A stretch of 64,000 nt of DNA, from assembly GCA_964554015.1 (NCBI GenBank), contig CAZKMO010000003.1, positions 127 through 64,126 on the forward strand, written 5' to 3'. Of this stretch, positions 1,392 to 27,067 are shown in pieces. This DNA comes from an uncultured bacterium. GTDB lineage: Bacteria; Zhuqueibacterota; QNDG01; CAYUAG01. Under the pieces are notes generated by a model. It saw nothing but the letters and a program-made list of their open reading frames with translations, did no database searches and was not told the DNA's origin. The number at the start of each line of letters is the position of its first letter. Position 1 is the stretch's first letter. Made by a program: the position numbers and the translations under genes.

Positions 1392-1790
1392 TTATTTTGA
1401 TTTATTCTTTTCTTTTAAAAAGGCATACACCAGCTTTCTAAGATCATTCATATCAAATGGTTTTTCTATATATCCTGCTTTTCCCCAGCGATTTAAAGCA
1501 TCAATAACTTCTATCGAACCATGGGCAGTCATTACAATTACTAAGGTGTCAGGATATTTCTTTTTTACTTTATTTAAAAGTTCCCAACCGTTTATTTCCG
1601 GCATCCTCAGATCAGTTATTAACAGATCAATATTCTCTTGAGAAAGTATATCCAGTGCACTTTTTCCAGAATTTGCACACAGTACTTTTATTTTATCATT
1701 ATCTCTTGATAATCTCCGGGATATACTCCAAGTAAGATCTTCTTCATCATCAACAATTAATATTTTTTTATATTCGTTTTTGTTTTGCAT
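1392..1790 (-). CDS. Single-domain CheY-like response regulator. The ORF track starts at a TTG at 1802; the ATG at 1790, preceded by GAGAGGAAAA, is the likelier start.
   Basis: KKILIVDDEED, phospho-acceptor LLITDLRMP, VMTAH and EKPF motifs. Only 12 nt separate it from ftsZ. Confidence 0.85.
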   Translation of the reverse strand: MQNKNEYKKILIVDDEEDLTWSISRRLSRDNDKIKVLCANSGKSALDILSQENIDLLITDLRMPEINGWELLNKVKKKYPDTLVIVMTAHGSIEVIDALNRWGKAGYIEKPFDMNDLRKLVYAFLKEKNKSK

Positions 1791-1832
1791 TTTTCCTCTC
1801 AACAGGTAATTTTATTTTCGTTATTATTTTCG

Positions 1833-1847
1833 GCAAATATTGTACCA
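1833..1847 (-). promoter_or_regulatory. Candidate sigma-54 (-24/-12) promoter driving the regulator-ftsZ unit
   Basis: Minus-strand sequence TGGTACAATATTTGC has GG-N10-GC spacing and a TTGC -12 box. It lies about 45 nt upstream of the ATG at 1790, directly downstream of a sigma-54 activator gene. Confidence 0.45.
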
Positions 1848-1996
1848 AGAATAGTAATCCAGTATACCTGTAAATACTATTTCTATAATTTACTGTAATT
1901 TATAAAGATAGATTGTTATATTAAAAATTTCTGATGTAAAAAATCGTATTTATATAACATTTTTTGGATTATTTCTGACCAATATATTTTATTCGA

Positions 1997-3364
1997 TTAT
2001 TTTAAATCATTCTCTGAAATCTTATAGCTTTTAAGTTTTTCTCGTAAAGTTGAACGAGATATATTTAGAATTCTGGATGCCTTTGATTTATTACCATTTG
2101 TAGTTTTTAAGATATGAAGGATATGCTGTTTTTCCATTTCCTGTAATGATACTTTACCAAAAGATTTGTTTGCTATGGGAAATTTTTCTTCTTGAAGTTC
2201 CATGGGTAAAAAATCCGGAGTTAAGGAATCATCATTACAAAGGATAATACTTCTTTCAATAACATTTTTTAATTCTCTCACATTACCGGGCCAGGAATAG
2301 TTTAAGAGAATATTTTCAGTTTTTTTATCTATTTTTTGGATGTTTTTATTAAACTCTTTGTTGTACAATTGAATATAAAACTTTGCCAATAGTAATATAT
2401 CTTCTTTTCTCTCCCGTAAAGGAGGCATATTAATTTCCATTACTTTTAATCGGTAATAAAGATCATCTCTAAATTTCTGTTGATTTACCAGATCACGCAG
2501 ATCAGTATTGGAGGCAGCGATTACCCGAACATCGATATTAATATCTGTAGTTCCCCCAATTCTTCGAAAAATTTGGGATTCAATAACCCGAAGAATTTTC
2601 GGTTGCAAAGAAAGTTTCATACTGGAAATTTCATCCAAAAATATAGTTCCGCCATGAGCAAGTTCAAAAAGACCCTTTTTAGTATTGCGAGCATCAGTAA
2701 AAGCACCCTTTTCATGACCAAATAATTCACTTTCTAGTAAATTCTCTGGAATTGCACTGCAATTTAATTTAATAAAGGGCTGGTTTGCTCTGTCACTAAG
2801 ATAATGAATAGCATTTGCAACTAATTCTTTACCAGTACCGCTTTCTCCCAGGATTAAAATAGATGTTTTGGGTGTTTTGGCAACAATATTGGTTAAATTT
2901 CTGACATTCTCGATGGATTCACTTTCACCATAAATTGCATTTTCGGGAAAATGCTCCTTATGTTCTTTTCTCAACCTATCAACTTCCCTCTTCAATTGAT
3001 GGGTTTCTAAAATTTTCTTGACATTTAATTTCAATTCATCAAGTTCAAAAGGTTTAACCAAATAATCGTGTGCACCTTTTTTCATGGCGTCAATAGCCGG
3101 TTTGGCATCTGTCATGGCTGTCATCATTAACACTAAAATATCCGGATCCAATTCTTTTATTTTTTCTAATAAATCTATACCATTAATATCGGGAAGTTTA
3201 ATATCTAATATGACCAGATCAATTATTTTGTTTTTAAGAATCGATAATCCCTTTTTTCCCTTGGTAGTAGAATTAACAATATATCCTTCTTTTTCCAAAG
3301 TTTTGGTTAAAGTAAATATCATGTCTTCATTATCTTCAATAATCAATATACTTGCTTTACTCAT
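1997..3364 (-). CDS. Sigma-54-dependent response regulator (NtrC/Fis family): receiver, AAA+ sigma-54 interaction domain and C-terminal HTH
   Basis: ILIIEDNED...ILDIKLP receiver; Walker A GESGTGKE; GAFTDA (GAFTGA variant); ESELFGHEKGAFT; C-terminal ASRILNISRSTLREKLK helix-turn-helix. Confidence 0.9.
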   Translation of the reverse strand: MSKASILIIEDNEDMIFTLTKTLEKEGYIVNSTTKGKKGLSILKNKIIDLVILDIKLPDINGIDLLEKIKELDPDILVLMMTAMTDAKPAIDAMKKGAHDYLVKPFELDELKLNVKKILETHQLKREVDRLRKEHKEHFPENAIYGESESIENVRNLTNIVAKTPKTSILILGESGTGKELVANAIHYLSDRANQPFIKLNCSAIPENLLESELFGHEKGAFTDARNTKKGLFELAHGGTIFLDEISSMKLSLQPKILRVIESQIFRRIGGTTDINIDVRVIAASNTDLRDLVNQQKFRDDLYYRLKVMEINMPPLRERKEDILLLAKFYIQLYNKEFNKNIQKIDKKTENILLNYSWPGNVRELKNVIERSIILCNDDSLTPDFLPMELQEEKFPIANKSFGKVSLQEMEKQHILHILKTTNGNKSKASRILNISRSTLREKLKSYKISENDLK

Positions 3365-5315
3365 TTAATTCTCCTTCAGGTAAAATTATAGTAAATGTCG
3401 TACCCTTATTCAGTTCACTCTGCACATCTATATCACCATGATGATCTTCAATAATTCTATAGACAATTGAAAGCCCCATGCCTAATCCATCAGATTTGGT
3501 GGTGAAAAACGGATCAAAGATTGATTCTAATTTGTCGGAATGAATTCCTTTTCCGGTATCGGTAATATTAATCTGAACAAATGAATCTTGTTTTATCCAT
3601 TTATCTGCTTTTTTTATTAATTTGGGGATGGAAAATTTAATTGGTTTTGCAGATACCGTTATGGATCCATTTTTATTGATGGCATCAATGGCATTAAGCA
3701 TTAAATTTAAAAATACTTGCTGTATTTGTTGGGGATCAATAATCACGATAGGGAGATCATCATCAATATCTTCTATATAATTAATATTATTGGTTTTAAA
3801 TTTTTTGATTATAAGATTTATTACTTCATGAATCACTTTTTTGATATCATATGACTTTCTATCTGGGGGTTTGGGTCGTGCGAAAGCAACGATCGCCTTT
3901 AATAATTCATCTAATCTGTTTACTTGGTTTATAATTCGGGTTAAATATTCTAATCTTGAATCATCCGGTTCAAATTCATCTTTACAGGTCTGGCTTAAAC
4001 TTTTTATTCCAGCCAAAGGATTTTTTATTTCATGAGCTATGCCGGAAGCCAATATTCCCAGGGAAGCCAGTCTTTCCATTCTCTTTACTTCATTATGCAT
4101 CTGTTTTAATTCCGATATATCCCGGAAAGAAATAATGGTTCCAACTTTATTATTTAGATTATCGATTCTATCGGTAGTCGTAAATCCTATGGAAATTTTT
4201 TCTCCGGATTTAACAGTTAATTGAGTTTCACGGCTATACGGTAAAGCTCCTGGCTTGGTAGAACTCATGAGAAGTATATCTACTTCCTTGGGGATAAGTA
4301 CGGATTTTATTTTTTCTCCCAATACTTCCTCAGATTTCCATCCCAATATTCTCTCACCACCGGTATTAAGTGACGTTATAAAACCATTTAAATCAACGGT
4401 GAGCAGACCAGCGTCCATACTCTGAATGATACTTTCGTTAAAATTTTTTAATTCTAAAATTTCATTTTCCATCATTTTTTGTTCTGTAACATCCCGGGCT
4501 ATTCCCATGGAGCCCACAATTGAACCATGTTCAAAAATGGGAGTGATATTAAAGGATAGAATATAACAATCAGAAATATTACTCATGATTTGAGCCTGAA
4601 ATATTCTGGCTCTTCCTTGATGCACCAGCTGATAATTTTTTATGGCTCGTTTACGGTCTTGTTCTAGAATTAATTCTGAAAAATCTCTTTGCAGCCATTC
4701 TTTCTTTTTAAAACCGGTTAAGGGTTTGAACCGATTATTTAAATATACAAATTTTCCATTCTGATCAAGAGTGAAAATAAAATCATTTGCATTTTCAAGT
4801 AAGTCTCTATATCTGTATTCAGATCGCTTTATCTCCTGGCTTAATTCTTTATTTTTTCTTACCGATTCATCTGCAACCATAATATTTTCTAAACACTCAC
4901 GAAACCGCTTAGTATCAGAAAAATAGCTAAACCAGCCGCTAATTCCTAAGGTATAAAATTCCTTACTGTATTTAAAACGAACTTCTCTATCTGAGATAAT
5001 AATAAAAGGAATATTATGATACTCGGCTAATGATTTACTTTGTCTAAACTGTTTAAAGACTGCACAGCCATCCATATCCTCGGTTACGTAATCAGAAATA
5101 ATTAGAGCAGGGCGAATTTGAGGAATTAGTTCAATAGCCTTTGATCCTGAAGATATGGTTATGATCTCAGAATTTGTCTTTTCTAATATTTCTTTTAATT
5201 GATTGGATATTGCCTTCTTTGATTCAATAACCAATAGTTTTTTTTGTTTGAAAAAATCATCCATACTATTCTCGTTTATTATTTCTTTCAACTCATATAT
5301 AGTATTAGTTAGCAC
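3357..5315 (-). CDS. Cytoplasmic sensor histidine kinase: N-terminal receiver-like domain, two PAS domains, HisKA and HATPase_c
   Basis: H-box ASGIAHEIKNPLAGI; N/G boxes NLMLNAIDA, DTGKGI, GLGMGL; PAS-like blocks. Overlaps the downstream gene by 8 nt. Confidence 0.85.
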   Translation of the reverse strand: MLTNTIYELKEIINENSMDDFFKQKKLLVIESKKAISNQLKEILEKTNSEIITISSGSKAIELIPQIRPALIISDYVTEDMDGCAVFKQFRQSKSLAEYHNIPFIIISDREVRFKYSKEFYTLGISGWFSYFSDTKRFRECLENIMVADESVRKNKELSQEIKRSEYRYRDLLENANDFIFTLDQNGKFVYLNNRFKPLTGFKKKEWLQRDFSELILEQDRKRAIKNYQLVHQGRARIFQAQIMSNISDCYILSFNITPIFEHGSIVGSMGIARDVTEQKMMENEILELKNFNESIIQSMDAGLLTVDLNGFITSLNTGGERILGWKSEEVLGEKIKSVLIPKEVDILLMSSTKPGALPYSRETQLTVKSGEKISIGFTTTDRIDNLNNKVGTIISFRDISELKQMHNEVKRMERLASLGILASGIAHEIKNPLAGIKSLSQTCKDEFEPDDSRLEYLTRIINQVNRLDELLKAIVAFARPKPPDRKSYDIKKVIHEVINLIIKKFKTNNINYIEDIDDDLPIVIIDPQQIQQVFLNLMLNAIDAINKNGSITVSAKPIKFSIPKLIKKADKWIKQDSFVQINITDTGKGIHSDKLESIFDPFFTTKSDGLGMGLSIVYRIIEDHHGDIDVQSELNKGTTFTIILPEGELNE

Positions 5316-6768
5316 ACTGCAAAGTAAAATAAAATATTGATCCTCTCCCTAAAGTACTGTTAACTTTAAGTTCGGAATTATGTTGATCAATAATTTCCTT
5401 GGTTAAAGCCAAACCTAATCCAGAACCAAATTCACTGTCTTCATCAGTATGATTAACCCGGTAAAATTTTCTGAATATTTTATCCAAAGAATCTTCCGGT
5501 ATTCCATATCCATTATCAATAACACTAATAGTTATAACTTTATCTTTTTGTTCCAGCTTAATAGTGATTTCAGAACCGGAAGGGCTGTATTTAATGGCAT
5601 TGGATATTAAATTCTGTATTACTTGTTCAATAAGTTGTTGATCACCATAAGCCAAACAAATATGGGGTAAACAAGTTTTCTCAATTTGTATGTTCTTGCT
5701 CTGGGCAGTTGACATATATGAAGTAATAATCTTATCAACCAATTGTTCAATATTAAAGGGATGGATTTGGATTTGAATTTTACCTTCTTCCAGTTTGGAA
5801 AGATCGAGAAATTTATTTACCAATTTAACCAATCGTGATGTTTCATTTAAAATGATTGTAGAATATTCTTTGACCTTAACATTCCTGACATTTAAATCAC
5901 GAAGCAGATCACTAAATCCATAAATAGAGGTTAAAGGTGATTTTAGTTCATGGGCAACCATAGTCACCAGTTCAGATTTCATTTTATTGGCTATATATTC
6001 ATTAGTAATATCTCTTATCACAGTGACGATTCCTACAAATTCATTATTATCACTATAGATTCTGGAACCTGATGCCTGAAAATATTTTTTTGTGGCTATA
6101 TTTTTAATCCGCAAATCAAATATAATATCTTCAGTTTGTTTTCCATCCCGCAATTTTTTAAAAAGATTTAAAATTTGTTTAATTTTGATAATTTTTTTTA
6201 AATTTTGATTAAATACTTCCTTTTCCGTAAAACCAAATAATGTTTCAGCAGCTGGATTCACCATTAAAATCCTATATTGAGTATCTGTTACAATAACGCC
6301 ATCTACAATATTGCGTAAAATTCCTTCAATTTTATTCTTGGCATTAATAATTCCAGATAGGTCTATTTTTTTTATTCTCTCCATTTCATGAGCCATATAG
6401 ATAAACATTTTCTGAATTCTGTCCATATATTTATTTTTAGTAGCAGGAAAATTATTATTAAATTTACCCCTGGCAATATCAGTTGTATTATAAATTAATA
6501 TTCCTAAGGATTTACTTAACAGCAGTAAACAAAAATAAGTTATAATGAAAGATAAAAAAATAAGGATAGGAAAAAATGTAATATAGTTTTTTAAGCCGCA
6601 ATCATTTATAAAAGAAAAAACTGTATCTGACTGGGTTTCAATAGGTATTATTTTTACATCTATTAAAAAAATGAATAATAGTATTAACAATAGTAAAAAC
6701 ACCAGGTTTATAAACCAGATTCCAATAAAGGTTAATTTGTTGTATTTTATTTTTTTAAAAAAATGCAC
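5305..6768 (-). CDS. Membrane-anchored sensor histidine kinase (transmembrane N-terminus, PAS, HisKA, HATPase_c)
   Basis: Hydrophobic N-terminus; H-box MVAHELKSPLTSI; NLISNAIKY, DNGYGI, GSGLGL. Confidence 0.85.
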   Translation of the reverse strand: MHFFKKIKYNKLTFIGIWFINLVFLLLLILLFIFLIDVKIIPIETQSDTVFSFINDCGLKNYITFFPILIFLSFIITYFCLLLLSKSLGILIYNTTDIARGKFNNNFPATKNKYMDRIQKMFIYMAHEMERIKKIDLSGIINAKNKIEGILRNIVDGVIVTDTQYRILMVNPAAETLFGFTEKEVFNQNLKKIIKIKQILNLFKKLRDGKQTEDIIFDLRIKNIATKKYFQASGSRIYSDNNEFVGIVTVIRDITNEYIANKMKSELVTMVAHELKSPLTSIYGFSDLLRDLNVRNVKVKEYSTIILNETSRLVKLVNKFLDLSKLEEGKIQIQIHPFNIEQLVDKIITSYMSTAQSKNIQIEKTCLPHICLAYGDQQLIEQVIQNLISNAIKYSPSGSEITIKLEQKDKVITISVIDNGYGIPEDSLDKIFRKFYRVNHTDEDSEFGSGLGLALTKEIIDQHNSELKVNSTLGRGSIFYFTLQCAN

Positions 6769-6787: not shown

Positions 6788-7753
6788 TTAAAGAGTTTCG
6801 GATCGGTTTCTTCCCTTATTTTTTGCTTTGTAAAGTGCCTTATCTGCTAATTGAATTATCTGTTCTTCGTCCTCCACATCATCAGGAAAAGTGGCTATGC
6901 CTATACTAATGGTTATTTTTTCCCCCGGTAATCTGTTTCTTAAATGAAAATCATATTCTTCGACTAAAATGCGCAATTTTTCGGCTACTATACTAGAGGC
7001 CTTTTTATTAGTCCCGGGTAGGATTATGGCAAATTCTTCTCCTCCATAACGGGCAATGGTATCTACTTCTCTGAGATTTACAGTTAATAATTCAGCAAAT
7101 TGTTTAAGAACCCTGTCACCATTAGGGTGACCAAAAGTATCATTATAACGTTTAAAATGATCTATATCTATCATTAAAAGCGAAACCGGCAGTTTAAATC
7201 TCTTAGATCGTATGATCTCATAATGAATTTGATTTTTAAAAGCTCGGTAATTAAATAATTCTGTCAGTCCATCTGTAACTGCCAATTTTTTTAACTTTTC
7301 CTTAACAATTTCTAACTCATTATATTTTTGCTCTAGGGTTTTATGAAGATGTTTAATACGTATCAAGGATTTAACCCTGGTTATTAATTCTACCCGGTTA
7401 TAAGGTTTAGTAATGAAATCATCCGCTCCTGCACTGGTTCCCTTGATTCTTTCATCGTCTCCCCGTAAAGCCGTAACCAGAATTATGGGGATAAAACTGG
7501 TATTTTTAGATGATTTTAATTTTTTACAAATGGTAAATCCATCAGTATCCGGAAGAACTATATCTAAAATTATTATACTGGGAGAAAATTGATTCACTTT
7601 CTTTATTGCCTCAACTCCGGTTGAAGCCATTTCTATATCATATCCTTCGGAAGAAAGATAGGTTTTTAATAATAAACGATTATTGGTCTCATCATCAACA
7701 ACAAGAATAATATCTTTTTTATCTGATGAATTTTTATTTTTACTATCATTCAT
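6788..7753 (-). CDS. Response regulator with GGDEF output domain (PleD-like diguanylate cyclase)
   Basis: Receiver ILVVDDE...ILDIVLPDTDG; active-site RYGGEEF with an upstream RxxD I-site (REVD). Confidence 0.85.
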   Translation of the reverse strand: MNDSKNKNSSDKKDIILVVDDETNNRLLLKTYLSSEGYDIEMASTGVEAIKKVNQFSPSIIILDIVLPDTDGFTICKKLKSSKNTSFIPIILVTALRGDDERIKGTSAGADDFITKPYNRVELITRVKSLIRIKHLHKTLEQKYNELEIVKEKLKKLAVTDGLTELFNYRAFKNQIHYEIIRSKRFKLPVSLLMIDIDHFKRYNDTFGHPNGDRVLKQFAELLTVNLREVDTIARYGGEEFAIILPGTNKKASSIVAEKLRILVEEYDFHLRNRLPGEKITISIGIATFPDDVEDEEQIIQLADKALYKAKNKGRNRSETL

Positions 7754-7765
7754 GAAATTATGGTA

Positions 7766-16739: not shown

Positions 16740-18098
16740 TTATAATCTGCCCAAATATCTCATTGCTTTGGGGGCATACTCACTGTCAGGATAATTTTGA
16801 ACAAGCTGTTGAAAATTCTTCTTAGCTAATTCGACTTCACCAATTTTTAGATAGGTAACTCCATTCATAATTAAGGCATCGTCAAATTTATAGGAATTAC
16901 TAAAGTTTAAGACTGCTTTGAAAGCCTTTAATGCCTGATTGTAATCACCTAAGGCATGATAACATTCTCCAATCCAGTATTGACAGTTACTTGCTAATTT
17001 ATTATTCGGATTGGAATTTAAAAGATTCTGGAATTGATTAATCGCTTGCGTATATTCTCTGTTATAAAATAACTGCAGAGCACTTTTGTAGGCAGCCGTA
17101 AAATTACCATTATCTACATAGTTACTATAAGTATCACTTTTTGTACTAACACCTTGACCGGAAATTTTTGAAATATATTCTTCATTTTTATTTACCTTTT
17201 GTCGTAATTCACTAATTATCCTGTCACGTTCATTAATTTTATCTCGTAAGTCATCAATTTCATTCTCAACAGATGATTTATTAGTACCTTTGGATTCAGA
17301 GAATAAATCATCTATTGCTCCGGAGCTGGATTCTTCTTCAGCTGCCTGAAAAAGTAAATCCAAGGCTTCATCTTCACTTATTGATTCTTGAGACTGACTA
17401 GTTTTTCCACCTTCTTCTGTATTGAAGATATCATCCAGGGCGATTTCATCTCCGGAAAAAGGATACTCTATTTCTTCTTTTTGTCTGGTATCGCGTCTCG
17501 GGGCATTATTCAAGGCATAACTTAATCCCATTTTCGCAAACCAAAATAAGGGTTTGGTTACTCCTTTGGGTACATCAGAAGTAAAAGTATAATTACCGCT
17601 TCCACTGGCATTAAAGGCTAATTGATCATTTAATTTATAACTCAATCCCAGCCCTCCGGATACAGCGGCATCAAATTTCATATCTTCTTCAATAGGCGGT
17701 ATTTTACTTTCATATTTGGATTTAAATCCAAGTATACCTGCGTTAAAATAGGTTGACAAATTATCTGCATTCATAAAATTATACCCGAGGTTGAATCTAA
17801 AAGCCGGAAACAAGGTTACTTTATTATTATCCCAACCAAAATATTTGTCAGTTGCAGTTATAAATCCAGTACCGGTATTAATAAACAGATTAGGATTAAT
17901 ATTATACTGAAAAAATAATTCTGCTCCCGGACCTAATCCTGCACCCGGACTATTACGAGATGTCCTATCCTGACGACAACCAATAATATTTCCCCCAATA
18001 ACATCGGGATGAACTAATCTTTCAAAGAAATTCTGACTATATACAGAATTTGTTATAAATAATATAGTCAGGAACAAAATTAACTTATTCCGAATCAT
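16740..18098 (-). CDS. Outer-membrane beta-barrel domain fused to an acidic linker, a coiled coil and a C-terminal TPR (CpoB/YbgF-like) domain. The real start is probably M25 (MIRNK...), right after GGAGGAGAGAG.
   Basis: Signal peptide MIRNKLILFLTILFITNSVYS; alternating aromatic/hydrophobic strands; DDLRDKINERDRIISELRQK coiled coil; TPR repeats YWIGECYHALGDYNQALKAF. Confidence 0.55.
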   Translation of the reverse strand: MIRNKLILFLTILFITNSVYSQNFFERLVHPDVIGGNIIGCRQDRTSRNSPGAGLGPGAELFFQYNINPNLFINTGTGFITATDKYFGWDNNKVTLFPAFRFNLGYNFMNADNLSTYFNAGILGFKSKYESKIPPIEEDMKFDAAVSGGLGLSYKLNDQLAFNASGSGNYTFTSDVPKGVTKPLFWFAKMGLSYALNNAPRRDTRQKEEIEYPFSGDEIALDDIFNTEEGGKTSQSQESISEDEALDLLFQAAEEESSSGAIDDLFSESKGTNKSSVENEIDDLRDKINERDRIISELRQKVNKNEEYISKISGQGVSTKSDTYSNYVDNGNFTAAYKSALQLFYNREYTQAINQFQNLLNSNPNNKLASNCQYWIGECYHALGDYNQALKAFKAVLNFSNSYKFDDALIMNGVTYLKIGEVELAKKNFQQLVQNYPDSEYAPKAMRYLGRL

Positions 18099-18150: not shown

Positions 18151-18166
18151 TGCAAATACTTTGCCA
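18151..18166 (-). promoter_or_regulatory. Candidate sigma-54 promoter for the outer-membrane/TPR gene. It lies inside the 5' extension of the longest ORF.
   Basis: Minus-strand TGGCAAAGTATTTGCA (GG-N10-GC, TTTGCA), about 55 nt upstream of the RBS/ATG at 18098. Confidence 0.55.
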
Positions 18167-18364
18167 TCAATATAAGATTAAATATAAATATAACGCTATT
18201 ACTTTGTTTCTAAAGGAATTACAGTATTAACAAATTTAAGGTATAACATTAACAAAATATATTGTGGATGAATTTTGACCATATATAAACATTGCAATAT
18301 TTAATGTTTATATTAAATATTAAACTCTTATATATATAAAAAAGGGGGAAGGTATTATTTAATA

Positions 18365-19420
18365 TTAAATGGAAGCATCCAAATCAAGCATTTTAGTCCC
18401 TTTGATGTATTCTTTGGAAACCGGTTTGGATATTCGAGCTAGTTTCTGGGTTATACTTTTAATTCTTAAGGCATTATCAATAATAATATTCAAGCGTTTT
18501 CGGATATCCTCATCAGTAATTCTCTCATCCTGAAGAAGAAACTGGGCATGTCCAAGTATCGGGACTAAAGGATTGTTTATGGCATGATTTACCGTAATTG
18601 CAGTTTCAAGAATGGTTGCTAATCTTTCTGAACGTTGTATAGATGAACTATCTACATCTTCCTTTTGGTGCATGGTAAGCGCTAAACAGCCGATTACATT
18701 CCCATTAATATCTTTCATTGGTGATAAAGAAAGACTAACTGGAATTTTATTTTTTGTTTTATCTATTAAAAATGTCTTATAATTGGTTAATTTTCCGTCT
18801 TTGTTGACTGTATTAAATATTTTTAACAGTTCTGAAGATCCATCATTTAATAACTCACTTATATTTAAACCTATTAATTCTTTGAATTTATATTTTAATA
18901 ATCGTATACTTGCTTTATTACAATAAGTAATATATCCCTTATTATCAGCAGTAAATATTGACTCTACTGAACTTTCAAGTACATTTTCCAGAAAATATTT
19001 ACCATTATTCATGGTTTTTTGAAATTTTTTATTGTTCTTGGAGACAACATTTGAAATTATAATTTTGTTAATAAAATTAATTAAATCATTGGTGTGGAAA
19101 GGTTTATTAAAATGTGAGTAGAAACCTTGTTTATTTAAGGTTGACTCGTTTGTTGTGCCATTGGAGGTTAAAAGAATAAAAGGAATATTTTTATGATTAT
19201 TTTGAGAATGTATCTTATTAATAAAATCTTCCGCACTCATGTCGGACAATCTTTCATCTACAAAAATAATATCAAATATATTATTTGAAGATTTTTTTAA
19301 ACCTGAGGATCCACTATCTGCAGTTATACAATGAAAAGATGAATTTGATAAAGTTTTCTGAACATCAGTGCATAGTGAATTATCACTATCAATATATAAT
19401 ACTTTTTTTAATGATTTCAT
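18365..19420 (-). CDS. Signalling protein with an atypical receiver, a PAS domain and a DHp (HisKA) domain, ending without any ATPase domain
   Basis: H-box ITVNHAINNPLVPILGHAQFL sits at the C-terminus with no N/G1/G2 boxes after it. The 4-nt ATGA overlap with the upstream regulator suggests translational coupling. Confidence 0.65.
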   Translation of the reverse strand: MKSLKKVLYIDSDNSLCTDVQKTLSNSSFHCITADSGSSGLKKSSNNIFDIIFVDERLSDMSAEDFINKIHSQNNHKNIPFILLTSNGTTNESTLNKQGFYSHFNKPFHTNDLINFINKIIISNVVSKNNKKFQKTMNNGKYFLENVLESSVESIFTADNKGYITYCNKASIRLLKYKFKELIGLNISELLNDGSSELLKIFNTVNKDGKLTNYKTFLIDKTKNKIPVSLSLSPMKDINGNVIGCLALTMHQKEDVDSSSIQRSERLATILETAITVNHAINNPLVPILGHAQFLLQDERITDEDIRKRLNIIIDNALRIKSITQKLARISKPVSKEYIKGTKMLDLDASI

Positions 19421-19794: not shown

Positions 19795-19847
19795 TATACC
19801 CTCCGGTTTATAGTAAATATTACCTACTCAAATTCATTTCAAAAAAA

Positions 19848-19862
19848 GCAACATCTATGCCA
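19848..19862 (-). promoter_or_regulatory. Candidate sigma-54 promoter for the regulator / PAS-DHp operon
   Basis: Minus-strand TGGCATAGATGTTGCT (GG-N10-GC), about 50 nt upstream of the ATG at 19794 and directly downstream of a sigma-54 activator gene. Confidence 0.55.
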
Positions 19863-19994
19863 TAAATGTACTAACCGGATAAATATAATGATATCAGGTA
19901 TTTAGATACATTCTAATTACAAAAATTATACTTTAAATATTTTAATAAAAGGCAAGCTTTTCCTGCAGGATACGGATAGTTTTTCCGTTTTGAA

Positions 19995-21365
19995 TTATAT
20001 ATCTATTCCCTCTTTACGATATTCATTTAATTTATTTCGAAGTGTCCTAACACTTATTCCCAAGCTTTCTGCAGTTTCTGTCCTATTACCGTCAAACTGT
20101 TTTAACTTCTGTAGAATCATAACTTGTTCAATTGCTCGTAAAGTCATATCTTTGGAAAAACTATCTGTTTCTTCACGAACATATTGATCCTGAAGAGAAA
20201 AGTGTTTGAGTTCTAAGGTTTTACTCTGAGGACCGGATAATACGACTGCTCTTTCAACACAATTTTCAATTTCTCTCACATTACCCGGCCATTTTCTGTT
20301 GATTAAAATCTGTAATGCTTTATCAGAAATTTTCTTTTCTGCATAATTATTTTCTTTACAGTATAATTTTATAAAATGGTTGATTAATAAAGGAATATCT
20401 TCTCTTCTTTCCGCTATGACGGGTACTTTAATGGGAACAACATTCAACCTATAAAAAAGATCTTCTCTAAATCTATTTTCCTTAACTTCTTTTTTTAAAT
20501 CTTTATTCGTCGTAGCAATTATCCTCACATCAATAGGTATTACTTTACCACTCCCTACTCTTTCAATTTCCTTTTCTTGTAAAACTCGTAAAAGTTTTGC
20601 TTGAAGTCCGAAACTTATTTCAGAGATTTCATCCAAAAGAATAGAACCACCATCTGCCAGTTCAAATCGTCCTTTACTGGTTTTATATGCACCCGTAAAA
20701 GCTCCTTTTTCATGGCCGAATAGTTCGCTTTCCACCAAACTTTCTGGTAAGGAGGCACAATTCGTAGTAATGAAGGGTGCGTTTTTTCTATTACTGTTAT
20801 AATGAATTGATCTAGCAATAAGTTCTTTTCCAGTGCCACTTGGCCCTTGAATTAGTATAGTGGCTTTACTCTTGGCCACCATTTCAATAGTATTAAAAAT
20901 CTTGTCCATTGGTTTACTTTGGCCAATAATATTCTTAAAACTAAATTTTTTATTTAATTCCGACCGTAAATACTTATTCTCATCTTTTAAATCTTCAAAT
21001 TCAAAATATTTTTTTACCACAATTTTAATTTCGTCGATCTCGAATGGCTTGGCAATATAATCAAATGCACCATCTTTCATGGATTTTACTGCACTTTTTA
21101 TGGAACCATAAGCAGTAATCATAATAACACCAATTTCAGGATATTTTGATTTAATTTTTTCGAGAATTTCCATACCGCTAATATCCGGAAGCCGTATATC
21201 AGTTATAACAAGATCAAAGTCATCCGAACTTATCATTTTAAATGCTTGTTCACCATTCTCTGCAGTTTCCACGGTGTATTTTTCTTTCTCAAAGGTATCC
21301 TTTAACAATTCTCGAATCAATTCCTCATCATCAATAACTAATATGTTCTTATTTTTTTTCTTCAA
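19995..21365 (-). CDS. Sigma-54-dependent response regulator (NtrC/Fis family)
   Basis: Receiver ILVIDDEE...ITDIRLPDISG; GPSGTGKE; ESELFGHEKGAFTGA; C-terminal TAESLGISVRTLRNKL helix-turn-helix. Confidence 0.9.
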   Translation of the reverse strand: MKKKNKNILVIDDEELIRELLKDTFEKEKYTVETAENGEQAFKMISSDDFDLVITDIRLPDISGMEILEKIKSKYPEIGVIMITAYGSIKSAVKSMKDGAFDYIAKPFEIDEIKIVVKKYFEFEDLKDENKYLRSELNKKFSFKNIIGQSKPMDKIFNTIEMVAKSKATILIQGPSGTGKELIARSIHYNSNRKNAPFITTNCASLPESLVESELFGHEKGAFTGAYKTSKGRFELADGGSILLDEISEISFGLQAKLLRVLQEKEIERVGSGKVIPIDVRIIATTNKDLKKEVKENRFREDLFYRLNVVPIKVPVIAERREDIPLLINHFIKLYCKENNYAEKKISDKALQILINRKWPGNVREIENCVERAVVLSGPQSKTLELKHFSLQDQYVREETDSFSKDMTLRAIEQVMILQKLKQFDGNRTETAESLGISVRTLRNKLNEYRKEGIDI

Positions 21366-21376: not shown

Positions 21377-22036
21377 TTATATTTCGATTTTTAAAATATT
21401 AATTCCATCATTTTTTGATAACGCTGAATATTTTCCTTTTAACAAACCTACCATATTTTGGGTAATGGCAAAACATAATCTTGCATAAAGGTATCGGGAT
21501 TCCTTCATTAAATTTTTTATGTAGTCAGATATATCCGTATTATTTTTAATATCTTTTTCGAAATAAATTTTGATTGTAAGTTTTTTTCCCTTGGATAAAG
21601 TAACCAAGATTTTTTTTATTTTGCTATTAATTTCCTGTAAAAATTGTATTGCATTTCTAAAAAGTTCTTCCAAAATATCTTGATCAGATATTATTTCAAT
21701 ATACTTATCTTCAAGAGATTTATCAAAATCAAGCTTTTTTATTAAATCTTCATCATTACTGGATATATTTTTTAAAATTTCTCTAAACAAATATTCGATC
21801 TTCACTTTCTCTTCTTGAAGCTCTCTCATTCTAACCAGAGACATTAATTTTAAGGTTATTTCATTCACTCCAATAACACCATCATTAATTTTTTTTACAT
21901 ATCGCATTTTAGGATCATTAGAATTTAATTCTTTTTCCAGAAGAGTAGCATAGCCACCTATCCCTCCAAGTCCGTTTTTAATTTTATGGATTACATCAGC
22001 AATTAATTTATTAATAAATATATATTTAGTATACAT
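21377..22036 (-). CDS. Small DHp/HisKA-like protein with a degenerate or absent ATPase domain
   Basis: H-box-like ADVIHKIKNGLGGIGGYATLL; possible N-box LFRNAIQFL, but no DxGxG or GxGxG boxes. Wedged between a hybrid kinase and a sigma-54 activator (11-nt gap). Confidence 0.45.
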   Translation of the reverse strand: MYTKYIFINKLIADVIHKIKNGLGGIGGYATLLEKELNSNDPKMRYVKKINDGVIGVNEITLKLMSLVRMRELQEEKVKIEYLFREILKNISSNDEDLIKKLDFDKSLEDKYIEIISDQDILEELFRNAIQFLQEINSKIKKILVTLSKGKKLTIKIYFEKDIKNNTDISDYIKNLMKESRYLYARLCFAITQNMVGLLKGKYSALSKNDGINILKIEI

Positions 22037-22053: not shown

Positions 22054-24516
22054 TTACTCATTAATATATGAACGAATTTTAGCAAGCAAGGGACGTATTT
22101 CAAAGGGTTTTTCAATAAATCCAGTCACTTTCCGTTTGTAAATATTTTCAATCTTTTCTTTTTCACCCTTTCTGGAAGTGGCAATAATTTTAACTTCAGG
22201 ATTAATTTTCTTAAACCAGGCTAACACCTTTTTTATGGGCATTCCTCTTAAGGCAATATCAAGAATTATCAAATCAATTCGACTTTTATATTTTTTATAT
22301 ATAGCAATTGCTTCTGAACTATTTTCAGCACTGATAACTTTATATCCATAACGGTTAAGCATCTTCCGAGCTGTCTCTCTGATAATTTTTTCACTATCGA
22401 CCAATAAAATAGTTTCTTTGCCCAGTGAAGGTTTAATATCCTTTTTTGTTTCTATATCAGTTGATTTTCTTTTTTGGGCTGATAGATGAATTTTAAATAC
22501 AGTACCTCTGTTCTTTTCACTAAAGACTGAAATAAAACCAGAATGCTTTCTTATTACATTCTGCACCATAGCCAATCCCATACCTTTACTATTTGAATCA
22601 ACATTTTTGGTAGAAAAATCAGGATCAAAAATTTTACTTTTTATTTCATTACTAATACCTTTTCCATTATCACTTATTTCAATCTGTACATATTTTCCTG
22701 GTTTGGCATTATACATTTTACAGACATTAGTATCATTTAATTCAATATTCCGAGTTTTAAAGAATATTTTACCACCATCAGGTATTGCATCCCTGGAATT
22801 TAAGGCAACCTGTAGTATGGCCTGTTGTATTTGACTTGCATCTGCCCTAATCAAATATACATCCGGATTTAATTCTGCATGTATAGATTTATTATTTTCT
22901 AGCGTTCTGGAAAGTATAGTGGCTACTTCTCTGATTAATTCGTTGACATCAAGAGAATCAACTATGTATGAACTTCCCTTTGAATACGCTGAAAGCCGTC
23001 CGGCCAATTCGGAAGCTTTTTCAGCGGAATTGGAAATTTGTATAATATCATCGTAAAATTGATTATCTTTAGATACTTCTTCTTTTAATAAAGAACTGAA
23101 TCCTAATATGGAAGCAAGCTGATTGTTGAAATCATGAACTATACCACCGGTTAAAATACCAAGAGATTCCATTTTTCTAGCTTGTATTAACTGATCTTTT
23201 AAACGTCGTTCATCACTTTGATTAATCCAATACCATAATTCTGATGTAACATTCTCATGTATTATTTTTGCAATTGAGCATTTTATTTCACATCGACTTC
23301 CATCACTGGTGATTATATTTATATCACAAATTTTATTTTTCTTTTCATTATTACTATTTCTTAACTTATTTATTTCCTCTTGTGATTCTGGAGTAAGAAA
23401 ATCAAATATTTTTCTCCCTTTTAGATTTTCTTGAGTGATTTCCAATATTTCACAAATCCATTCATTAACAAATTCAATTTTATCATTTTTTATGCATAAT
23501 ATACCTAAAAGAGGTGAATTATAAATTGATTTTGTTATATCGTCTGATTGGGGAGTTTTATTAATATTTAATTGAATAATTTTTTGAACAGATTGGACAT
23601 TATTTTCCAAGAAGGTAATATCTCGTTCCTCCCACATTTCTTGTTTTTTACCCAAAACGACTATATACCCTTTAATATTATTTTCTTCAGGTATTGGGAC
23701 AATTAGTGATGATTCATACTCAGTTAAAGAAACAAGATAATTTTTCAATTCCTCAGAGGTAATTCCCAAAACAAAATCAGATACGTTTTTTATTAAACAC
23801 ATACCATTTTTATTCACTGAAGCTGATGAAACTTCCGGGCAGGCATCGATCACTCTATTCCAAATTTGTGGACTCCAAAAAATATATTCATCTTTTTTAT
23901 TTTCATAAAGTTTATTGTCATGGGAAGATTTTTTTAAGAAGATATTTCCCAATGATTGTTTATCAGTTACTATCCCTATTTCCCAGGAATCTAAAATATT
24001 TTGAATATCAATCATGATTTTTTTAAGATCAGAGATGCTTACTTCATGATTTACAATTTTTTGAGCAATTTTATTAGAAAAGTCTCTCTCTTGTTCTAAG
24101 CAGGCAAGTTCAGTTATATCCTGAATATATAATCGAATAAATTTAGGTTTCCCGGAATCATCCAAATGTGCCAAACCATTAATTCTTACTGAAAAACTTT
24201 CTCCTTTCCCTTGCATGGTTGCTCTAATACTACGAATATATCCTTTATTGAGGCATTGTTTAAGAGAGTCTTGAATTATTTCTAAATCTTTTTCTATGAA
24301 AAAATCGATAAATTTTTTACCTAAAATCTCAATATCGGAAAAATTCATTTTTTCCTGGGCGGTAACATTACAGGATTCAATCTGATAAGTATCATTAATA
24401 AGAAAATAAAGAATATCAACTTTAGAATAAAATTCTTTATACACCCTTTCCGGAAGTTGGGAAAAATTAAGATTTTTATCAGTTATTTTGGGTTTTAATT
24501 CATCCATTTTTAGCAA
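22054..24516 (-). CDS. Cytoplasmic hybrid sensor histidine kinase (PAS/GAF-like sensory region, HisKA, HATPase_c, C-terminal receiver)
   Basis: H-box GGIVHDFNNQLASILGFSSLL; SDNGKGI, GMGLAM; C-terminal receiver ILLVDSE...ILDIALRGM. Confidence 0.85.
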   Translation of the reverse strand: MLKMDELKPKITDKNLNFSQLPERVYKEFYSKVDILYFLINDTYQIESCNVTAQEKMNFSDIEILGKKFIDFFIEKDLEIIQDSLKQCLNKGYIRSIRATMQGKGESFSVRINGLAHLDDSGKPKFIRLYIQDITELACLEQERDFSNKIAQKIVNHEVSISDLKKIMIDIQNILDSWEIGIVTDKQSLGNIFLKKSSHDNKLYENKKDEYIFWSPQIWNRVIDACPEVSSASVNKNGMCLIKNVSDFVLGITSEELKNYLVSLTEYESSLIVPIPEENNIKGYIVVLGKKQEMWEERDITFLENNVQSVQKIIQLNINKTPQSDDITKSIYNSPLLGILCIKNDKIEFVNEWICEILEITQENLKGRKIFDFLTPESQEEINKLRNSNNEKKNKICDINIITSDGSRCEIKCSIAKIIHENVTSELWYWINQSDERRLKDQLIQARKMESLGILTGGIVHDFNNQLASILGFSSLLKEEVSKDNQFYDDIIQISNSAEKASELAGRLSAYSKGSSYIVDSLDVNELIREVATILSRTLENNKSIHAELNPDVYLIRADASQIQQAILQVALNSRDAIPDGGKIFFKTRNIELNDTNVCKMYNAKPGKYVQIEISDNGKGISNEIKSKIFDPDFSTKNVDSNSKGMGLAMVQNVIRKHSGFISVFSEKNRGTVFKIHLSAQKRKSTDIETKKDIKPSLGKETILLVDSEKIIRETARKMLNRYGYKVISAENSSEAIAIYKKYKSRIDLIILDIALRGMPIKKVLAWFKKINPEVKIIATSRKGEKEKIENIYKRKVTGFIEKPFEIRPLLAKIRSYINE

Positions 24517-24536
24517 CTATTAAAAAATTTGCTTTC

Positions 24537-27005
24537 TTATTGAGATAAAATTTCATCTACTTTTTCAATAAACATCTCTGTCTGAAAAGGTTTTTTAATA
24601 AAATACTCTCCATTCAGCTTTAATAAATCTGGTCGGTCTTCCGGTCCATATCCACTGGTAAAAATTATATCAATCTCCGGTTTAATATTTCTTAAAATTT
24701 TACTTGTTTCCATTCCATCCATAACCGGCATAATAACATCAATAATAACTAATGCTATACTATCTATATTCTTTTTGAAAACTTCAACTGCTTCTTTTCC
24801 ATCTTTTGCTAATAAAACTTTATATCCACCTTTATTCAGCATTCGTTCACCGACTTCACGAATGACATCTTCATCATCAACAAATAAAATATATTTTGAA
24901 TTATCATTTATAACTTTCTTTTTAATATTCGTCTGATTTTCTTTTATACGTGGAAAAAATATTATTACATTGGTTCCCTTTCCAATCTCACTTTCAACCT
25001 TAATATATCCGTTGTGATTTTTGACAATTCCGTACACCATGGACATACCCAAGCCCGTTCCTTCACCTTGAGGTTTTGTGGTGAAAAAAGGTTCAAATAT
25101 TCTTAATTTTGTTTTTTTATCCATACCAAAACCAGTGTCACTAATGGTAATTTTTACATAATCTCCTTGTACTAAATTTGATATATATTCCTTATGAGAT
25201 TGATGCATTGTAATATTTTTAGTAATAATAGTTAATTTTCCACCTTCAGGCATTACATCTCTGGCATTTAAACAAATATTATGTAAAGTTTGGTGAATCT
25301 GACGCGAATCACCATAAATTGACCAAATATTTTTTTCAAGATTTGTTTCAATTATTACTGATTTATCCAAAGAATGGGAAAGAATAGCTACTACATCGTT
25401 TATTAAATTATTAATATTAATCTTAGTTACTTGATATTTTCCGCCTCTGGCAAAAGCAAGTATCCGGTTACTTAACTCTGCACCTCGTTTTGCAGTTTCA
25501 GCAATAGCTTGTATATCATTATAAAAGGGATGATCATCTGAGATTTCACTTAATAATAATGATGAAAATCCTAATATACCTCCTAGAAGATTATTAAAGT
25601 CATGGGCGATTCCACCAGCTAAGGTACCAAGTGATTTTAATTTTTGATTTTCAAGTAATTGTAATTCAAGATTTTTTCGTTCTGATATATCTATAATATA
25701 TCCAAATACTGCATTTTTTTGATTTAGAATTATATTGGATATGTATAATTCACACCAGCACATTTTACCATCTTTTCTAATTAAACGAATTTCATCTCTA
25801 AAGTTGGTTTTTTCACCTTTTTCTAAAAATTCATGATGACTAACAATTTTACTCCTGTCCTCAGCATCCACTAAATCATAAAATTCAATATCGTTCAGTT
25901 CATTCTCTGAATACCCGCTTATGGTTCTAAACATAGCATTGGTAAATTTTATTAATCCATTTTGTACTATGTAGATACCTAATATACTGGACTCAATTAA
26001 TATTCGATATTTTTCCCGGGATTCTCTTAAGATTGTTTCTAGCTCTTTTTTTCTGGTAATATCATTGATAAATGTCTGAATTACATTTTTTCCTTGGAAT
26101 TGAACTAAAGTACTTTTTAATTCTGCATAAAATTTTGTATTATCATTTTTTTTCAATATAGTTTCCAAGGATTCAACATTGTTTTTATTAATTACTTGTG
26201 AAAAATATTTTTTCTGTTTTTTGTACTCACTTTCTCCAGTTAAAAATTGAAATTTAGTATTTAGTAGTTTCTTTTTCTTTATTCCGAACAGTTTACAGGC
26301 TGCTTTATTAATTTCAACTATATCTCCATCTAGGGTATGGACTATAAGTCCATTATTGATACCATCAAATAAAGCATGATATTGTGCTTCTTTTTCTAAT
26401 AATTTTTTTGTGCCTAATTCGATCCTCTCCTCTACTTCTGAAGTCCATTTTTTTAGTTCCTCGTTTTTTTTCTTTAATTCATCGTACAATCGTGCATTTT
26501 GTAATGCGAAAGACAGAACCGAAGAAATAAAGGATATAAATTCACTTATTTTGGATTTATCTCTCCAACCAGAATAATTAATCAACAATAAGACATCAAT
26601 ATAGTCTTTTTTAATATTTATGGGACTAAATATTAGGGAATGACACTGATTATTTTTAAATTGTTCACTGATAAGTTTATCAACTGCAAAATCATCATAA
26701 AAAAGTATATCTTTTTTTACAAATCCTTTTTTTAATAAACTTAACTGAAGTCTGGAATTAATTATTGGTTCTTCATTTAAGGGTGCCGTAGAAATTATTT
26801 TTTGTTTCTTTCGTTTATTCCAATTTAATAATAAAATCTGTTCAGATAAGCTTCGTTTCTGCAGTTCGACTAATATTTTCTTAATTCTCTGCCAAGGATC
26901 CAAAGAGATTCGAAAAATATCTTTTCCACTAACCCAATTAATTAAAGATTGATTGATATCGGATGGTGAAATCGTATTATCTTTCTTTTTTATAAATAAA
27001 CCCAA
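24537..27005 (-). CDS. Cytoplasmic hybrid sensor histidine kinase (GAF/PAS, HisKA, HATPase_c, receiver). Apparent TTG start.
   Basis: H-box GGIAHDFNNLLGGILGFSSLL; SDTGFGM, GTGLGMSM; C-terminal receiver ILFVDDED...IIDVIMPVMDG. Confidence 0.85.
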   Translation of the reverse strand: MGLFIKKKDNTISPSDINQSLINWVSGKDIFRISLDPWQRIKKILVELQKRSLSEQILLLNWNKRKKQKIISTAPLNEEPIINSRLQLSLLKKGFVKKDILFYDDFAVDKLISEQFKNNQCHSLIFSPINIKKDYIDVLLLINYSGWRDKSKISEFISFISSVLSFALQNARLYDELKKKNEELKKWTSEVEERIELGTKKLLEKEAQYHALFDGINNGLIVHTLDGDIVEINKAACKLFGIKKKKLLNTKFQFLTGESEYKKQKKYFSQVINKNNVESLETILKKNDNTKFYAELKSTLVQFQGKNVIQTFINDITRKKELETILRESREKYRILIESSILGIYIVQNGLIKFTNAMFRTISGYSENELNDIEFYDLVDAEDRSKIVSHHEFLEKGEKTNFRDEIRLIRKDGKMCWCELYISNIILNQKNAVFGYIIDISERKNLELQLLENQKLKSLGTLAGGIAHDFNNLLGGILGFSSLLLSEISDDHPFYNDIQAIAETAKRGAELSNRILAFARGGKYQVTKININNLINDVVAILSHSLDKSVIIETNLEKNIWSIYGDSRQIHQTLHNICLNARDVMPEGGKLTIITKNITMHQSHKEYISNLVQGDYVKITISDTGFGMDKKTKLRIFEPFFTTKPQGEGTGLGMSMVYGIVKNHNGYIKVESEIGKGTNVIIFFPRIKENQTNIKKKVINDNSKYILFVDDEDVIREVGERMLNKGGYKVLLAKDGKEAVEVFKKNIDSIALVIIDVIMPVMDGMETSKILRNIKPEIDIIFTSGYGPEDRPDLLKLNGEYFIKKPFQTEMFIEKVDEILSQ

Positions 27006-27051
27006 AGTATACCTAAAAGTTTAATTCAAAAATAGTAATCATTTTTATTTT

Positions 27052-27067
27052 TGCAAAGTTCATACCA
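27052..27067 (-). promoter_or_regulatory. Candidate sigma-54 promoter for the hybrid-kinase operon
   Basis: Minus-strand TGGTATGAACTTTGCA (GG-N10-GC, TTTGCA), about 45 nt upstream of the start at 27005, inside a 400-bp AT-rich intergenic region. Confidence 0.45.

Follow-up and report, generated by a model that had tools for sequence, protein, structure and literature searches.

Two Putative Sigma-54-Dependent Two-Component Modules, One Carrying an Unusual FtsZ Gene, in an Uncultured Zhuqueibacterota Bacterium

Two Signalling Islands and Their Genes

We analyzed a 64,000-nucleotide stretch of DNA (the window) from an uncultured bacterium of the GTDB lineage Zhuqueibacterota (GenBank assembly GCA_964554015.1, contig CAZKMO010000003.1, positions 127 to 64,126), which holds two groups of signalling genes, islands A and B. 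Both are read on the minus strand, and in both, genes for kinases are followed by a gene for an NtrC-type activator, a GG-N10-GC motif of the sigma-54 promoter type, and a gene for a single-domain receiver (REC) protein (Table 1). Our data support the view that these islands are likely two independent, anciently separate modules that share a general design, in which one or more kinases would act on an NtrC-type activator and the activator on an adjacent sigma-54 promoter.

Pfam matches bore out the gene order that a first-pass annotation, made from the letters of the window, had given for each island. In island A the order is REC-GGDEF protein, PAS histidine kinase, REC-PAS histidine kinase, NtrC-type activator, promoter A, and REC, and in island B it is two PAS hybrid histidine kinases ending in REC, a HisKA-only protein, NtrC-type activator, promoter B, REC, and a REC-PAS-HisKA protein. 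Island A had been taken to end at position 1392, and the continuation of the promoter-A operon into an FtsZ gene (1379..1) had been missed. This gene (ftsZ-P1) begins 13 nt 3' of the stop codon of receiver gene A5, which is its adjacent upstream gene in every relative, and it is because of this short gap that we place ftsZ-P1 in the promoter-A operon.

Table 1. Genes and candidate regulatory sites of the two islands and of the outer-membrane protein locus (window coordinates).
Feature	Position	Strand	Details
FtsZ with CheA-P1/Hpt-like C-terminal domain (FtsZ-P1)	1..1379, cut by window start	-	full length 509 aa (P0001)
Single-domain receiver A5, 132 aa	1392..1790	-	Pfam Response_reg 1.4e-25; DD, phospho-Asp, Thr, and Lys positions kept
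Sigma-54 promoter A	1832-1847	-	TGGTACAATATTTGCC; ~42 nt 5' of REC A5 start codon
Candidate activator-A site (UAS-A)	1965..1981	-	TGGTCAGAAATAATCCA; ~117 nt 5' of -24 element
Activator A, NtrC-type (REC-AAA+-HTH_8)	1997..3364	-	Pfam Sigma54_activat 2.2e-68; L1 loop GAFTDA
REC-PAS-PAS histidine kinase A3	3357..5315	-	H-box HEIKNPL, G1/G2 boxes; not C-terminal hybrid
PAS histidine kinase A2	5305..6768	-	Pfam PAS, HisKA, HATPase_c; H-box HELKSPL, G1/G2 boxes
REC-GGDEF response regulator, diguanylate cyclase type (island A gene 1)	6788..7753	-	Pfam Response_reg 2.7e-27, GGDEF 4.1e-49
Outer-membrane beta-barrel protein with C-terminal YbgF/CpoB-like TPR	16740..18098	-	Pfam OMP_b-brl, TPR families
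Sigma-54 promoter D	18151-18166	-	TGGCAAAGTATTTGCA; ~53 nt 5' of ATG 18098
UAS-A-type motif upstream of promoter D	18265..18281	-	TGGTCAAAATTCATCCA; 99 nt 5' of promoter D
B6, REC-PAS-DHp	18365..19420	-	H-box VNHAINNPL; no ATPase domain; in all island-B relatives
Single-domain receiver B5, 125 aa	19417..19794	-	Pfam Response_reg 8.4e-18; receiver residues present
Sigma-54 promoter B	19847-19862	-	TGGCATAGATGTTGCT; ~52 nt 5' of REC B5
Tandem candidate activator-B sites (UAS-B)	19951..19986	-	form GGCAA-N3-TTGCC
Activator B, NtrC-type sigma-54 activator	19995..21365	-	canonical GAFTGA loop
B3 pseudo-kinase, 219 aa, DHp + CA-like domain	21377..22036	-	HisKA 4.6e-5
Hybrid kinase 2, PAS-PAS-HisKA-HATPase-REC	22054..24516	-	Pfam; 35.6% identity to kinase 1
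Hybrid kinase 1, PAS-PAS-HisKA-HATPase-REC	24537..27005	-	Pfam
Sigma-54 promoter C	27052-27067	-	TGGTATGAACTTTGCA; ~47 nt 5' of hybrid kinase 1 (TTG start 27005)
Inverted repeat TGAAA-N7-TTTCA upstream of promoter C	27361..27377	-	in window, L009, L033, L034

Sigma-54 Motifs in the Window

All four GG-N10-GC sites of the first-pass annotation (A, B, C, and D) were found at their given places on the minus strand, with coordinates that agree within 1 nt. The GG and GC doublets are exactly 10 nt apart in each, and all four sites fit TGG-N8-TTGC. The -12 box, which had been described as TTGC(A/T) throughout, has that form in B, C, and D but reads TTGCC in A. To score such motifs we used a weighted TGGCAC-N5-TTGCW pattern with a threshold of ≥13.5, and the background was taken from composition-preserving block shuffles (n = 300). 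Five matches at or above the threshold were found in the window, every one on the minus strand, whereas the 300 shuffles averaged 0.55 matches and had at most 3. The observed count is ~9-fold above expectation, and a count of four was reached in 0 of 300 shuffles, which upholds the earlier statement that four exactly spaced sites are unlikely to occur by chance. The simpler pattern TGGYA-N6-TTGCW was also over-represented in the window (3 observed versus 0.53 expected), whereas shifting the spacing by 1 nt (TGG-N9-TTGC) as a control gave no excess (8 observed versus 7.4 expected).

Of the five high-scoring matches, four lie between genes and on the gene strand, roughly 40–55 nt 5' of a start codon. 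The fifth, TGGTATGCCCTTTGCG (60980-60995, minus strand), lies within the coding region of a CCG/4Fe-4S protein gene (60431-61498) and is probably a chance match. The promoter motifs were also compared by eye with the Bacteroidota-type -7 box, the consensus of which is TAnnTTTG; that reading was rejected, as no site of the four has the box. Scanning the window for Rfam families and tRNA genes gave no matches.

Conservation of Promoters A and B and Their Candidate Activator Sites

For comparison, 21 island-A loci were retrieved from species-representative genomes via the FtsZ C-terminal domain and 29 island-B loci from metagenomes via B6, and a few further loci were obtained by exact look-up (loci and proteins are referred to by L and P numbers). 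Some of these relatives are labelled candidate division KSB1. Promoter A was kept in 20/20 related loci that hold the spacer between the activator-A and REC genes, where it was the best match, in the form TGGTAY-N5-TTGC just before the REC gene; one of the 20 has a weaker -24 variant, CGGCAT. The activator-B/REC spacer is included in 24 relatives, and every one of them has kept promoter B as TGGCAY-N5-TTGC; the GC element of this promoter was 41–71 nt from the start codon in three relatives. The spacers around these promoters vary visibly in sequence, length (about 165–554 bp), and GC content, and the exact spacing of the motif over dozens of loci with otherwise differing spacers favors the sigma-54 reading. 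In ~880 kb of related loci, all non-coding matches scoring ≥13.5 were on the gene strand, and all but one were at the island positions. The single exception precedes the FtsZ-P1 operon of a distant clade (see below).

Both activators have a REC domain, a Sigma54_activat domain (AAA+, with the Walker A motif), and an HTH_8 domain (Fis-type helix-turn-helix). The L1 loop of activator B is GAFTGA in 15/15 orthologues. That of activator A is GAFTDA in 17 of 18 orthologues and GSFTDA in the remaining one; GAFTDA is a natural variant in the sigma-54-dependent Desulfovibrio vulgaris activator DVU2106 and is among the variants expected to retain activity (PMC4641369).

Candidate binding sites were observed upstream of both promoters. 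In 19 loci UAS-A directly follows the stop codon of activator A, and its consensus in distant relatives is GTGGTC-N7-GACCAC. UAS-B consists of a proximal palindrome, GGAAAAGCTTGCC (19951-19963), which is 101 nt 5' of the promoter B -24 element, and a distal site, GGAAAAACTATCC (19974-19986), which is 23 nt beyond it. The proximal site is 91–105 nt from the -24 element in 20/20 loci and the distal one 20–23 nt further in 17, and this distance holds in L011 despite a spacer that has grown to 554 bp. In the GC-richer loci L036, L044, L045, L050, and L051, the motif AAAAACAA was observed ~35–45 nt 5' of the promoter B -24 element; positioned between the tandem UAS-B and the promoter, it might be a DNA-bending site of the IHF/HU type. 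Promoter conservation, the conserved upstream candidate sites, and the domains of the activators together support the earlier proposal of sigma-54 wiring in which each activator would drive the gene directly 3' of its own.

Sites C and D and the Outer-Membrane Protein Gene

The first-pass annotation had listed sites C and D as further candidates. Their motifs are real; they are conserved only in the clade of the window, and D resembles a target of activator A rather than a part of island B. Both sites were kept in 3/3 close relatives (L009, L033, and L034; B6 identity 66–70%), and in these three loci site C is unchanged over its first 15 nt within spacers that have otherwise diverged. Distant relatives that lack C have instead TGGAAY-N5-TTTGC between the two hybrid kinase genes. 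As either arrangement would make part of the kinase-activator operon sigma-54 dependent, promoter C probably autoregulates that operon. At C, no assignable activator site was seen apart from the AT-rich inverted repeat at 27361..27377, which may be a regulator site (TGAAA-N7-TTTCA has this single match in the window versus 0.41 expected by chance).

The start of the outer-membrane protein gene downstream of D is better set at ATG 18098, behind a GGAGGAG ribosome-binding site, and with this start site D is outside the coding sequence. The protein scored 83.7 bits against TIGR02795 (tol_pal_ybgF; cut-off 90.1) and 3.5e-13 against CpoB. Promoter D was not found in L010 or L011, where another gene lies downstream. 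The UAS-A-type motif upstream of D (TGGTTA form) is kept in L009, L033, and L034, and it can be compared with its island-A counterpart within a relative contig that has both islands (island A in L012, TATGGTCAAAATCAATCCAT; site D in L009, TATGGTTAAAATTCATCCAT). This shared upstream motif, the pattern of which matches the window nowhere but at promoters A and D, suggests that promoter D belongs to activator A, which may then also control the gene for the outer-membrane/CpoB-like protein. The motif is contained in a block of ~60 bp 5' of D that is near-identical in the window, L009, L033, and L034. The same block was observed to have a perfect 7-bp inverted repeat, AAACATT-N9-AATGTTT (18287-18309), which may be a second regulator site. 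On the 3' side of the outer-membrane/TPR gene (15093-16578, minus strand) there are genes for an R3H-domain protein, a single-domain REC protein, and a CheB methylesterase domain without a receiver, a trio also present in L009; these may be part of the promoter-D transcript, or may represent a split CheB.

Alternative Explanations

The GG-N10-GC matches could be chance occurrences in AT-rich spacers, or sites of some other kind, with sigma-70-type promoters, or transcription reading through from the activator genes, accounting for expression of the genes downstream. Several of our observations weigh against the sigma-54 modules and in part favor such an explanation. Pairs of sigma-70-like hexamers are present in all of the AT-rich spacers, and additional promoters or read-through may operate there. 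An open reading frame with an RpoN box was found neither in the window nor in 877 kb of related loci, and we infer the presence of rpoN solely from the activators. One match of the same quality is intragenic (60980-60995), and sites C and D are absent from the more distant relatives, being present in four closely related loci only. The left half of UAS-A is weakly conserved among distant relatives, and TGGTY-N7-ATCCA, which occurs exactly twice in the window (UAS-A and 18265-18281) versus 0.30 expected, is a pattern that was set after seeing both sites. For the relay proposed for island B, the model of B3 has a mean pLDDT of only 69. The sigma-70-like pairs are, however, like the terminator matches of the spacers, no more frequent than in shuffles, the sigma-54 motif exceeds expectation ~9-fold and keeps its spacing and strand in dozens of loci despite the differences in their spacers, and the sites do not fit the Bacteroidota-type box; we therefore give an origin by chance or by another kind of site very little credence. 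A further possibility is that the upstream palindromes are intrinsic terminators of the activator genes, in which case they would not pair promoters with activators, and activators encoded elsewhere may act. The proximal UAS-B was indeed flagged as terminator-like in the window, with a 5-bp stem and a T-rich tail, and UAS-A is always directly after the activator-A stop codon, at a varying distance from the promoter (123–169 nt). Yet the UAS-B stem is just 5 bp with a loop of 3 nt, its T-run is missing in the GC-richer relatives, it is one of a tandem pair ~two helical turns apart, and it stays ~100 nt from the promoter in L011 though far from the stop codon. On the basis of the unconserved T-run, the tandem pair, and the fixed distance to the promoter, we rejected UAS-B as a terminator. 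The UAS-A-type motif also precedes promoter D, although no activator gene has its end there, and for the two sites together we consider the terminator explanation unlikely.

The first-pass annotation described the islands as paralogues, that is, as one sigma-54-wired phosphorelay that was copied by segmental duplication. They do share the order of kinase(s), NtrC-type activator, sigma-54 promoter, and single REC, and in all-against-all BLASTP activators A and B are mutual best matches within the window (46.5% identity). This is, however, an ordinary level for any two NtrC-family proteins, and the kinases (24–33%) and small REC proteins (27%) of the two islands are also related only at the level of their generic families. 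Receiver A5 is in fact nearer to the receiver domains of the activators (38%) than to B5, which places it closest to NtrC-type receivers by sequence. The kinases are non-hybrid in island A versus hybrid and accompanied by a pseudo-kinase in island B, and the islands differ in their candidate activator sites, in the -24 sequence (TGGTAY in A versus TGGCAY in B), in the L1 loop (GAFTDA versus GAFTGA), and in cargo. Each island also has its own orthologues elsewhere. Homologues of the FtsZ in other metagenome-assembled genomes (MAGs) are 50–84% identical, and each context retrieved had island A next to the gene. Activator-B homologues in other MAGs are 55–85% identical, and each context retrieved for them had the gene surrounded by island B. 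Several relatives have both islands on the same contig (e.g., contigs of 749,424 bp and 59,822 bp), and these orthologues on shared long contigs indicate that the two islands coexist throughout the lineage. With orthologues of each island at 55–85% identity across many MAGs, any common origin would predate the lineage, and we regard a segmental duplication as highly unlikely. The interpretation that we prefer, two independent and anciently separate modules with kinase(s), an NtrC-type activator, and an adjacent sigma-54 promoter, has in our estimate a probability of roughly 0.7.

Phosphotransfer in Islands A and B

The same annotation called both islands a phosphorelay, and this description suits island B, which has hybrid kinases and a His-containing pseudo-kinase, but not island A. 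The kinases of island A have canonical H-boxes (HE.K.PL) and are non-hybrid (one without REC and one with an N-terminal REC), and no transferase is present, since the P1-like domain of FtsZ-P1 lacks the histidine (see below); for these reasons island A reads by sequence as an ordinary two-component arrangement with two kinases. The REC-GGDEF gene at its start begins 12 nt after the gene for glycine dehydrogenase subunit 2 (gcvPB), an adjacency kept in L004, L005, and L007 (9–12 nt), and this first gene of the island may be co-transcribed with the glycine-cleavage gene (junction at 7753-7766).

In island B, the B3 protein lacks a Pfam HATPase_c match and the G1/G2 ATP-lid boxes, and in an alignment its His17 is invariant and lies in an H-box-like motif, HKIKNGL. 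The homology search for B3 returned 8 relatives only, which resulted in a structural model of modest quality; in Foldseek the whole length of this model matched the cytoplasmic cores of ZraS, HK853, CpxA, and DivL (E from 4e-7). These properties fit a candidate ChpT-like histidine phosphotransferase acting between the hybrid kinases and activator B. The genes for B5 and B6 overlap by 4 nt, which places them in one operon, and by analogy the two proteins are probably a feedback or phosphate-sink pair. The C-terminal tail of B6 (18365-18430), PVSKEYIKGTKMLDLDASI, has most of its positions invariant at 42% overall identity, and its conservation suggests a docking motif.

An FtsZ with a CheA-P1-Like Domain

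FtsZ-P1 (P0001) matched Pfam Tubulin (1e-46), FtsZ_C (4e-29), and Hpt (3e-5, at the cut-off score of that family), and it scored 383.7 against TIGR00065, for which the equivalog cut-off is 295.2. Nothing of the GTPase core is missing: both the GGGTGTG signature and the NxDxxD motif of the T7 loop are present, and invariant residues include G110, G112-G114, T115, G118, N213, D215, and D218. Its best match among solved structures is the FtsZ of Methanocaldococcus jannaschii (352 bits), to which it is roughly half identical across ~308 residues; bacterial FtsZ proteins scored ≤263 bits. When 1.84 billion representatives were searched exhaustively, the closest informatively named clusters outside of the FtsZ-P1 family were without exception archaeal (Altiarchaeum, Loki/Promethearchaeota, Thermoplasmatota, Aenigmarchaeota, and Heimdall/Hodarchaeota). 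The best non-family matches, P0241-P0243, are proteins of 744–840 aa that have two FtsZ domains in tandem, and P0241 is labelled Candidatus Altiarchaeum/Altarchaeum hamiconexum. Other near neighbors of FtsZ-P1 are 442–889 aa in length, and 10 of 12 representatives (P0244-P0255) have the same C-terminal domain. Clustering at 50% identity divides the FtsZ-P1 family itself into at least 11 groups, and clustering at 90% into >100.

In an AlphaFold2 model of FtsZ-P1, the FtsZ core is joined by a disordered linker (324-379) to a bundle of five helices (381-508, pLDDT ~90), so that the protein ends in a folded helical domain of ~130 aa instead of a short terminal tether peptide. Within the linker and ahead of the bundle there is a conserved motif, (I/M)(F/Y)DIKE(S/T)IL (IFDIKESIL in P0001 at ~354-364; window ~290-320, minus strand), which from its sequence may be an internal counterpart of the C-terminal tether-binding peptide. 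The profile of the C-terminal domain matched the P1 domain of Thermotoga maritima CheA (E 5e-11), and the phospho-histidine of CheA, His45, was aligned with Lys426 of FtsZ-P1. A histidine was observed in this column in 0 of 130 family members; the residue is Lys or Arg in 100/102 members of the clade of the window and Ser, Ala, or others elsewhere. We accordingly rejected the C-terminus as a working Hpt domain. Judged by sequence, the domain is P1-like in its predicted fold and cannot be a canonical phosphotransfer domain.

Genes for FtsZ-P1 are always next to or near genes for receiver proteins. Their conserved context is activator A, REC, ftsZ, thrS, infC, rpmI, rplT, pheST, zapB, and zapA, and neither ftsA nor a dcw cluster was found next to ftsZ-P1 in any locus seen. 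A distant clade of the family (~580 aa, 40–42% identity) has another operon context (L062 and L063), in which the order is a ParA/MinD-like ATPase gene, a sigma-54 promoter, and genes for a lytic transglycosylase (SLT), a 778-aa protein for which there was no Pfam match, FtsZ-P1, and a 266-aa protein; a gene for a REC protein (231–234 aa) lies upstream. The promoter there, TGGCATAAAACTTGCA, is a perfect TGGCAT-N5-TTGCA (L062 6878-6893; L063 ~2575-2590), and the ParA/MinD-like gene ends at this promoter (GTGGCATAAAACTTGCAA). As these operon contexts are independent of each other, the association of FtsZ-P1 with sigma-54 and receivers is recurrent. In the literature searched (FtsZ with Hpt, and ftsZ with sigma-54), we found no description of an FtsZ with such an architecture or of a sigma-54-dependent ftsZ.

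Proposed Mechanism

We propose that signals sensed by the PAS domains lead the kinases to phosphorylate the activator, which would oligomerize on its upstream site and open the sigma-54 promoter. In module A, two PAS kinases would phosphorylate activator A (the GAFTDA-loop protein), which would bind at 1965-1981 and open promoter A for expression of receiver A5 and FtsZ-P1; activator A would also turn on the outer-membrane/CpoB-like envelope gene through promoter D. Given its resemblance to NtrC-type receivers, A5 is likely charged by the same kinases of island A, and it may act on FtsZ-P1 via the P1-like domain, which is the most speculative step. In module B, the two hybrid kinases would signal through B3 to activator B in a multistep relay, and activator B, on the tandem GGCAA-N3-TTGCC sites ~100 nt upstream, would open promoter B. 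The products, receiver B5 and the ATPase-less REC-PAS-DHp protein B6, would then be sigma-54-dependent feedback components, and promoter C, or the promoter between the kinase genes in relatives, would render the kinase-activator operon sigma-54 dependent. We infer all of the phosphotransfer partners, the pairings of activators with sites, and the role of FtsZ-P1.

Comparison with Known Systems

As sigma-54 modules the two islands are members of a well-known kind, and their wiring is textbook. They resemble systems of the NtrB-NtrC/glnAp2 type (also ZraSR, AtoSC, and the activators of D. vulgaris, PMC4641369) in that a kinase would act on a REC-AAA+-HTH activator and that candidate palindromic sites lie ~100 nt 5' of a GG-N10-GC promoter adjoining the activator gene, tandem sites being ~two helical turns apart. 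In D. vulgaris many activators act on adjacent operons (PMC4641369). The modules described here differ in that the predicted targets are signalling and cytoskeletal genes (REC and an FtsZ variant; REC and REC-PAS-DHp) and not metabolic or transport genes.

Island B can also be compared with two multistep relays. In that of Vibrio, the hybrid kinases LuxN, LuxQ, and CqsS converge on a separate histidine phosphotransferase, LuxU, and then on the NtrC-type activator LuxO. The predicted path of island B, from hybrid kinases through a candidate transferase to an NtrC-type sigma-54 activator, is alike; LuxU, however, is a four-helix Hpt protein and the targets of its relay are Qrr small RNAs, whereas B3 is a pseudo-kinase with DHp and CA-like domains and the targets in island B are proteins. 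In the CckA-ChpT-CtrA/CpdR relay of Alphaproteobacteria, which is linked to control of the cell cycle and division, ChpT has a kinase-core fold without ATP binding. Here too the predicted arrangement of island B is alike, in that a hybrid kinase would act on a candidate ChpT-type transferase and this on a transcription factor and a single-domain receiver. No relationship of B3 to ChpT could, however, be detected by sequence, and the Foldseek matches listed above are ordinary kinase cores. The relay of island B would moreover end in a sigma-54 activator, and its lineage is a different one.

FtsZ-P1 shares with the FtsZ proteins of bacteria (TIGR00065) and with archaeal FtsZ1 a complete GTPase core, and its score is above the equivalog cut-off. 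It differs from them in having no ftsA or dcw neighbor, in scoring closer to archaeal proteins, in its folded C-terminal domain, and in the predicted co-transcription of its gene with a receiver gene from a sigma-54 promoter. Its C-terminal domain is like CheA P1/Hpt at the level of the sequence profile and in its predicted helical bundle, and differs in that the phospho-accepting His of the second helix is replaced.

Implications

The comparative footprints give two cleanly defined pairs of promoter and candidate activator site in an uncultured lineage. More unusual is the cargo of promoter A, which belongs to a widespread family of FtsZ proteins with an archaeal-like core and a His-less, CheA-P1-like domain, and which is preceded by a predicted sigma-54 promoter in two unrelated contexts. 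One tentative suggestion, which we regard as rather unlikely, is that FtsZ-P1 is a signal-gated cytoskeletal GTPase that would be made only when the PAS kinases and sigma-54 fire, and whose assembly would be controlled by docking of the phosphorylated receiver on the P1-like domain, together with the co-regulated outer-membrane/CpoB-like protein. If FtsZ-P1 is the only FtsZ of this lineage, then cell division itself would be under two-component and sigma-54 control. If it is instead a second, archaeal-derived FtsZ, then it would represent a new inducible, FtsZ-based system for remodelling of the membrane or envelope in bacteria. Our results suggest a direct link between two-component signalling and an FtsZ-type cytoskeleton, one that recombinant proteins would make testable despite the lack of cultures.

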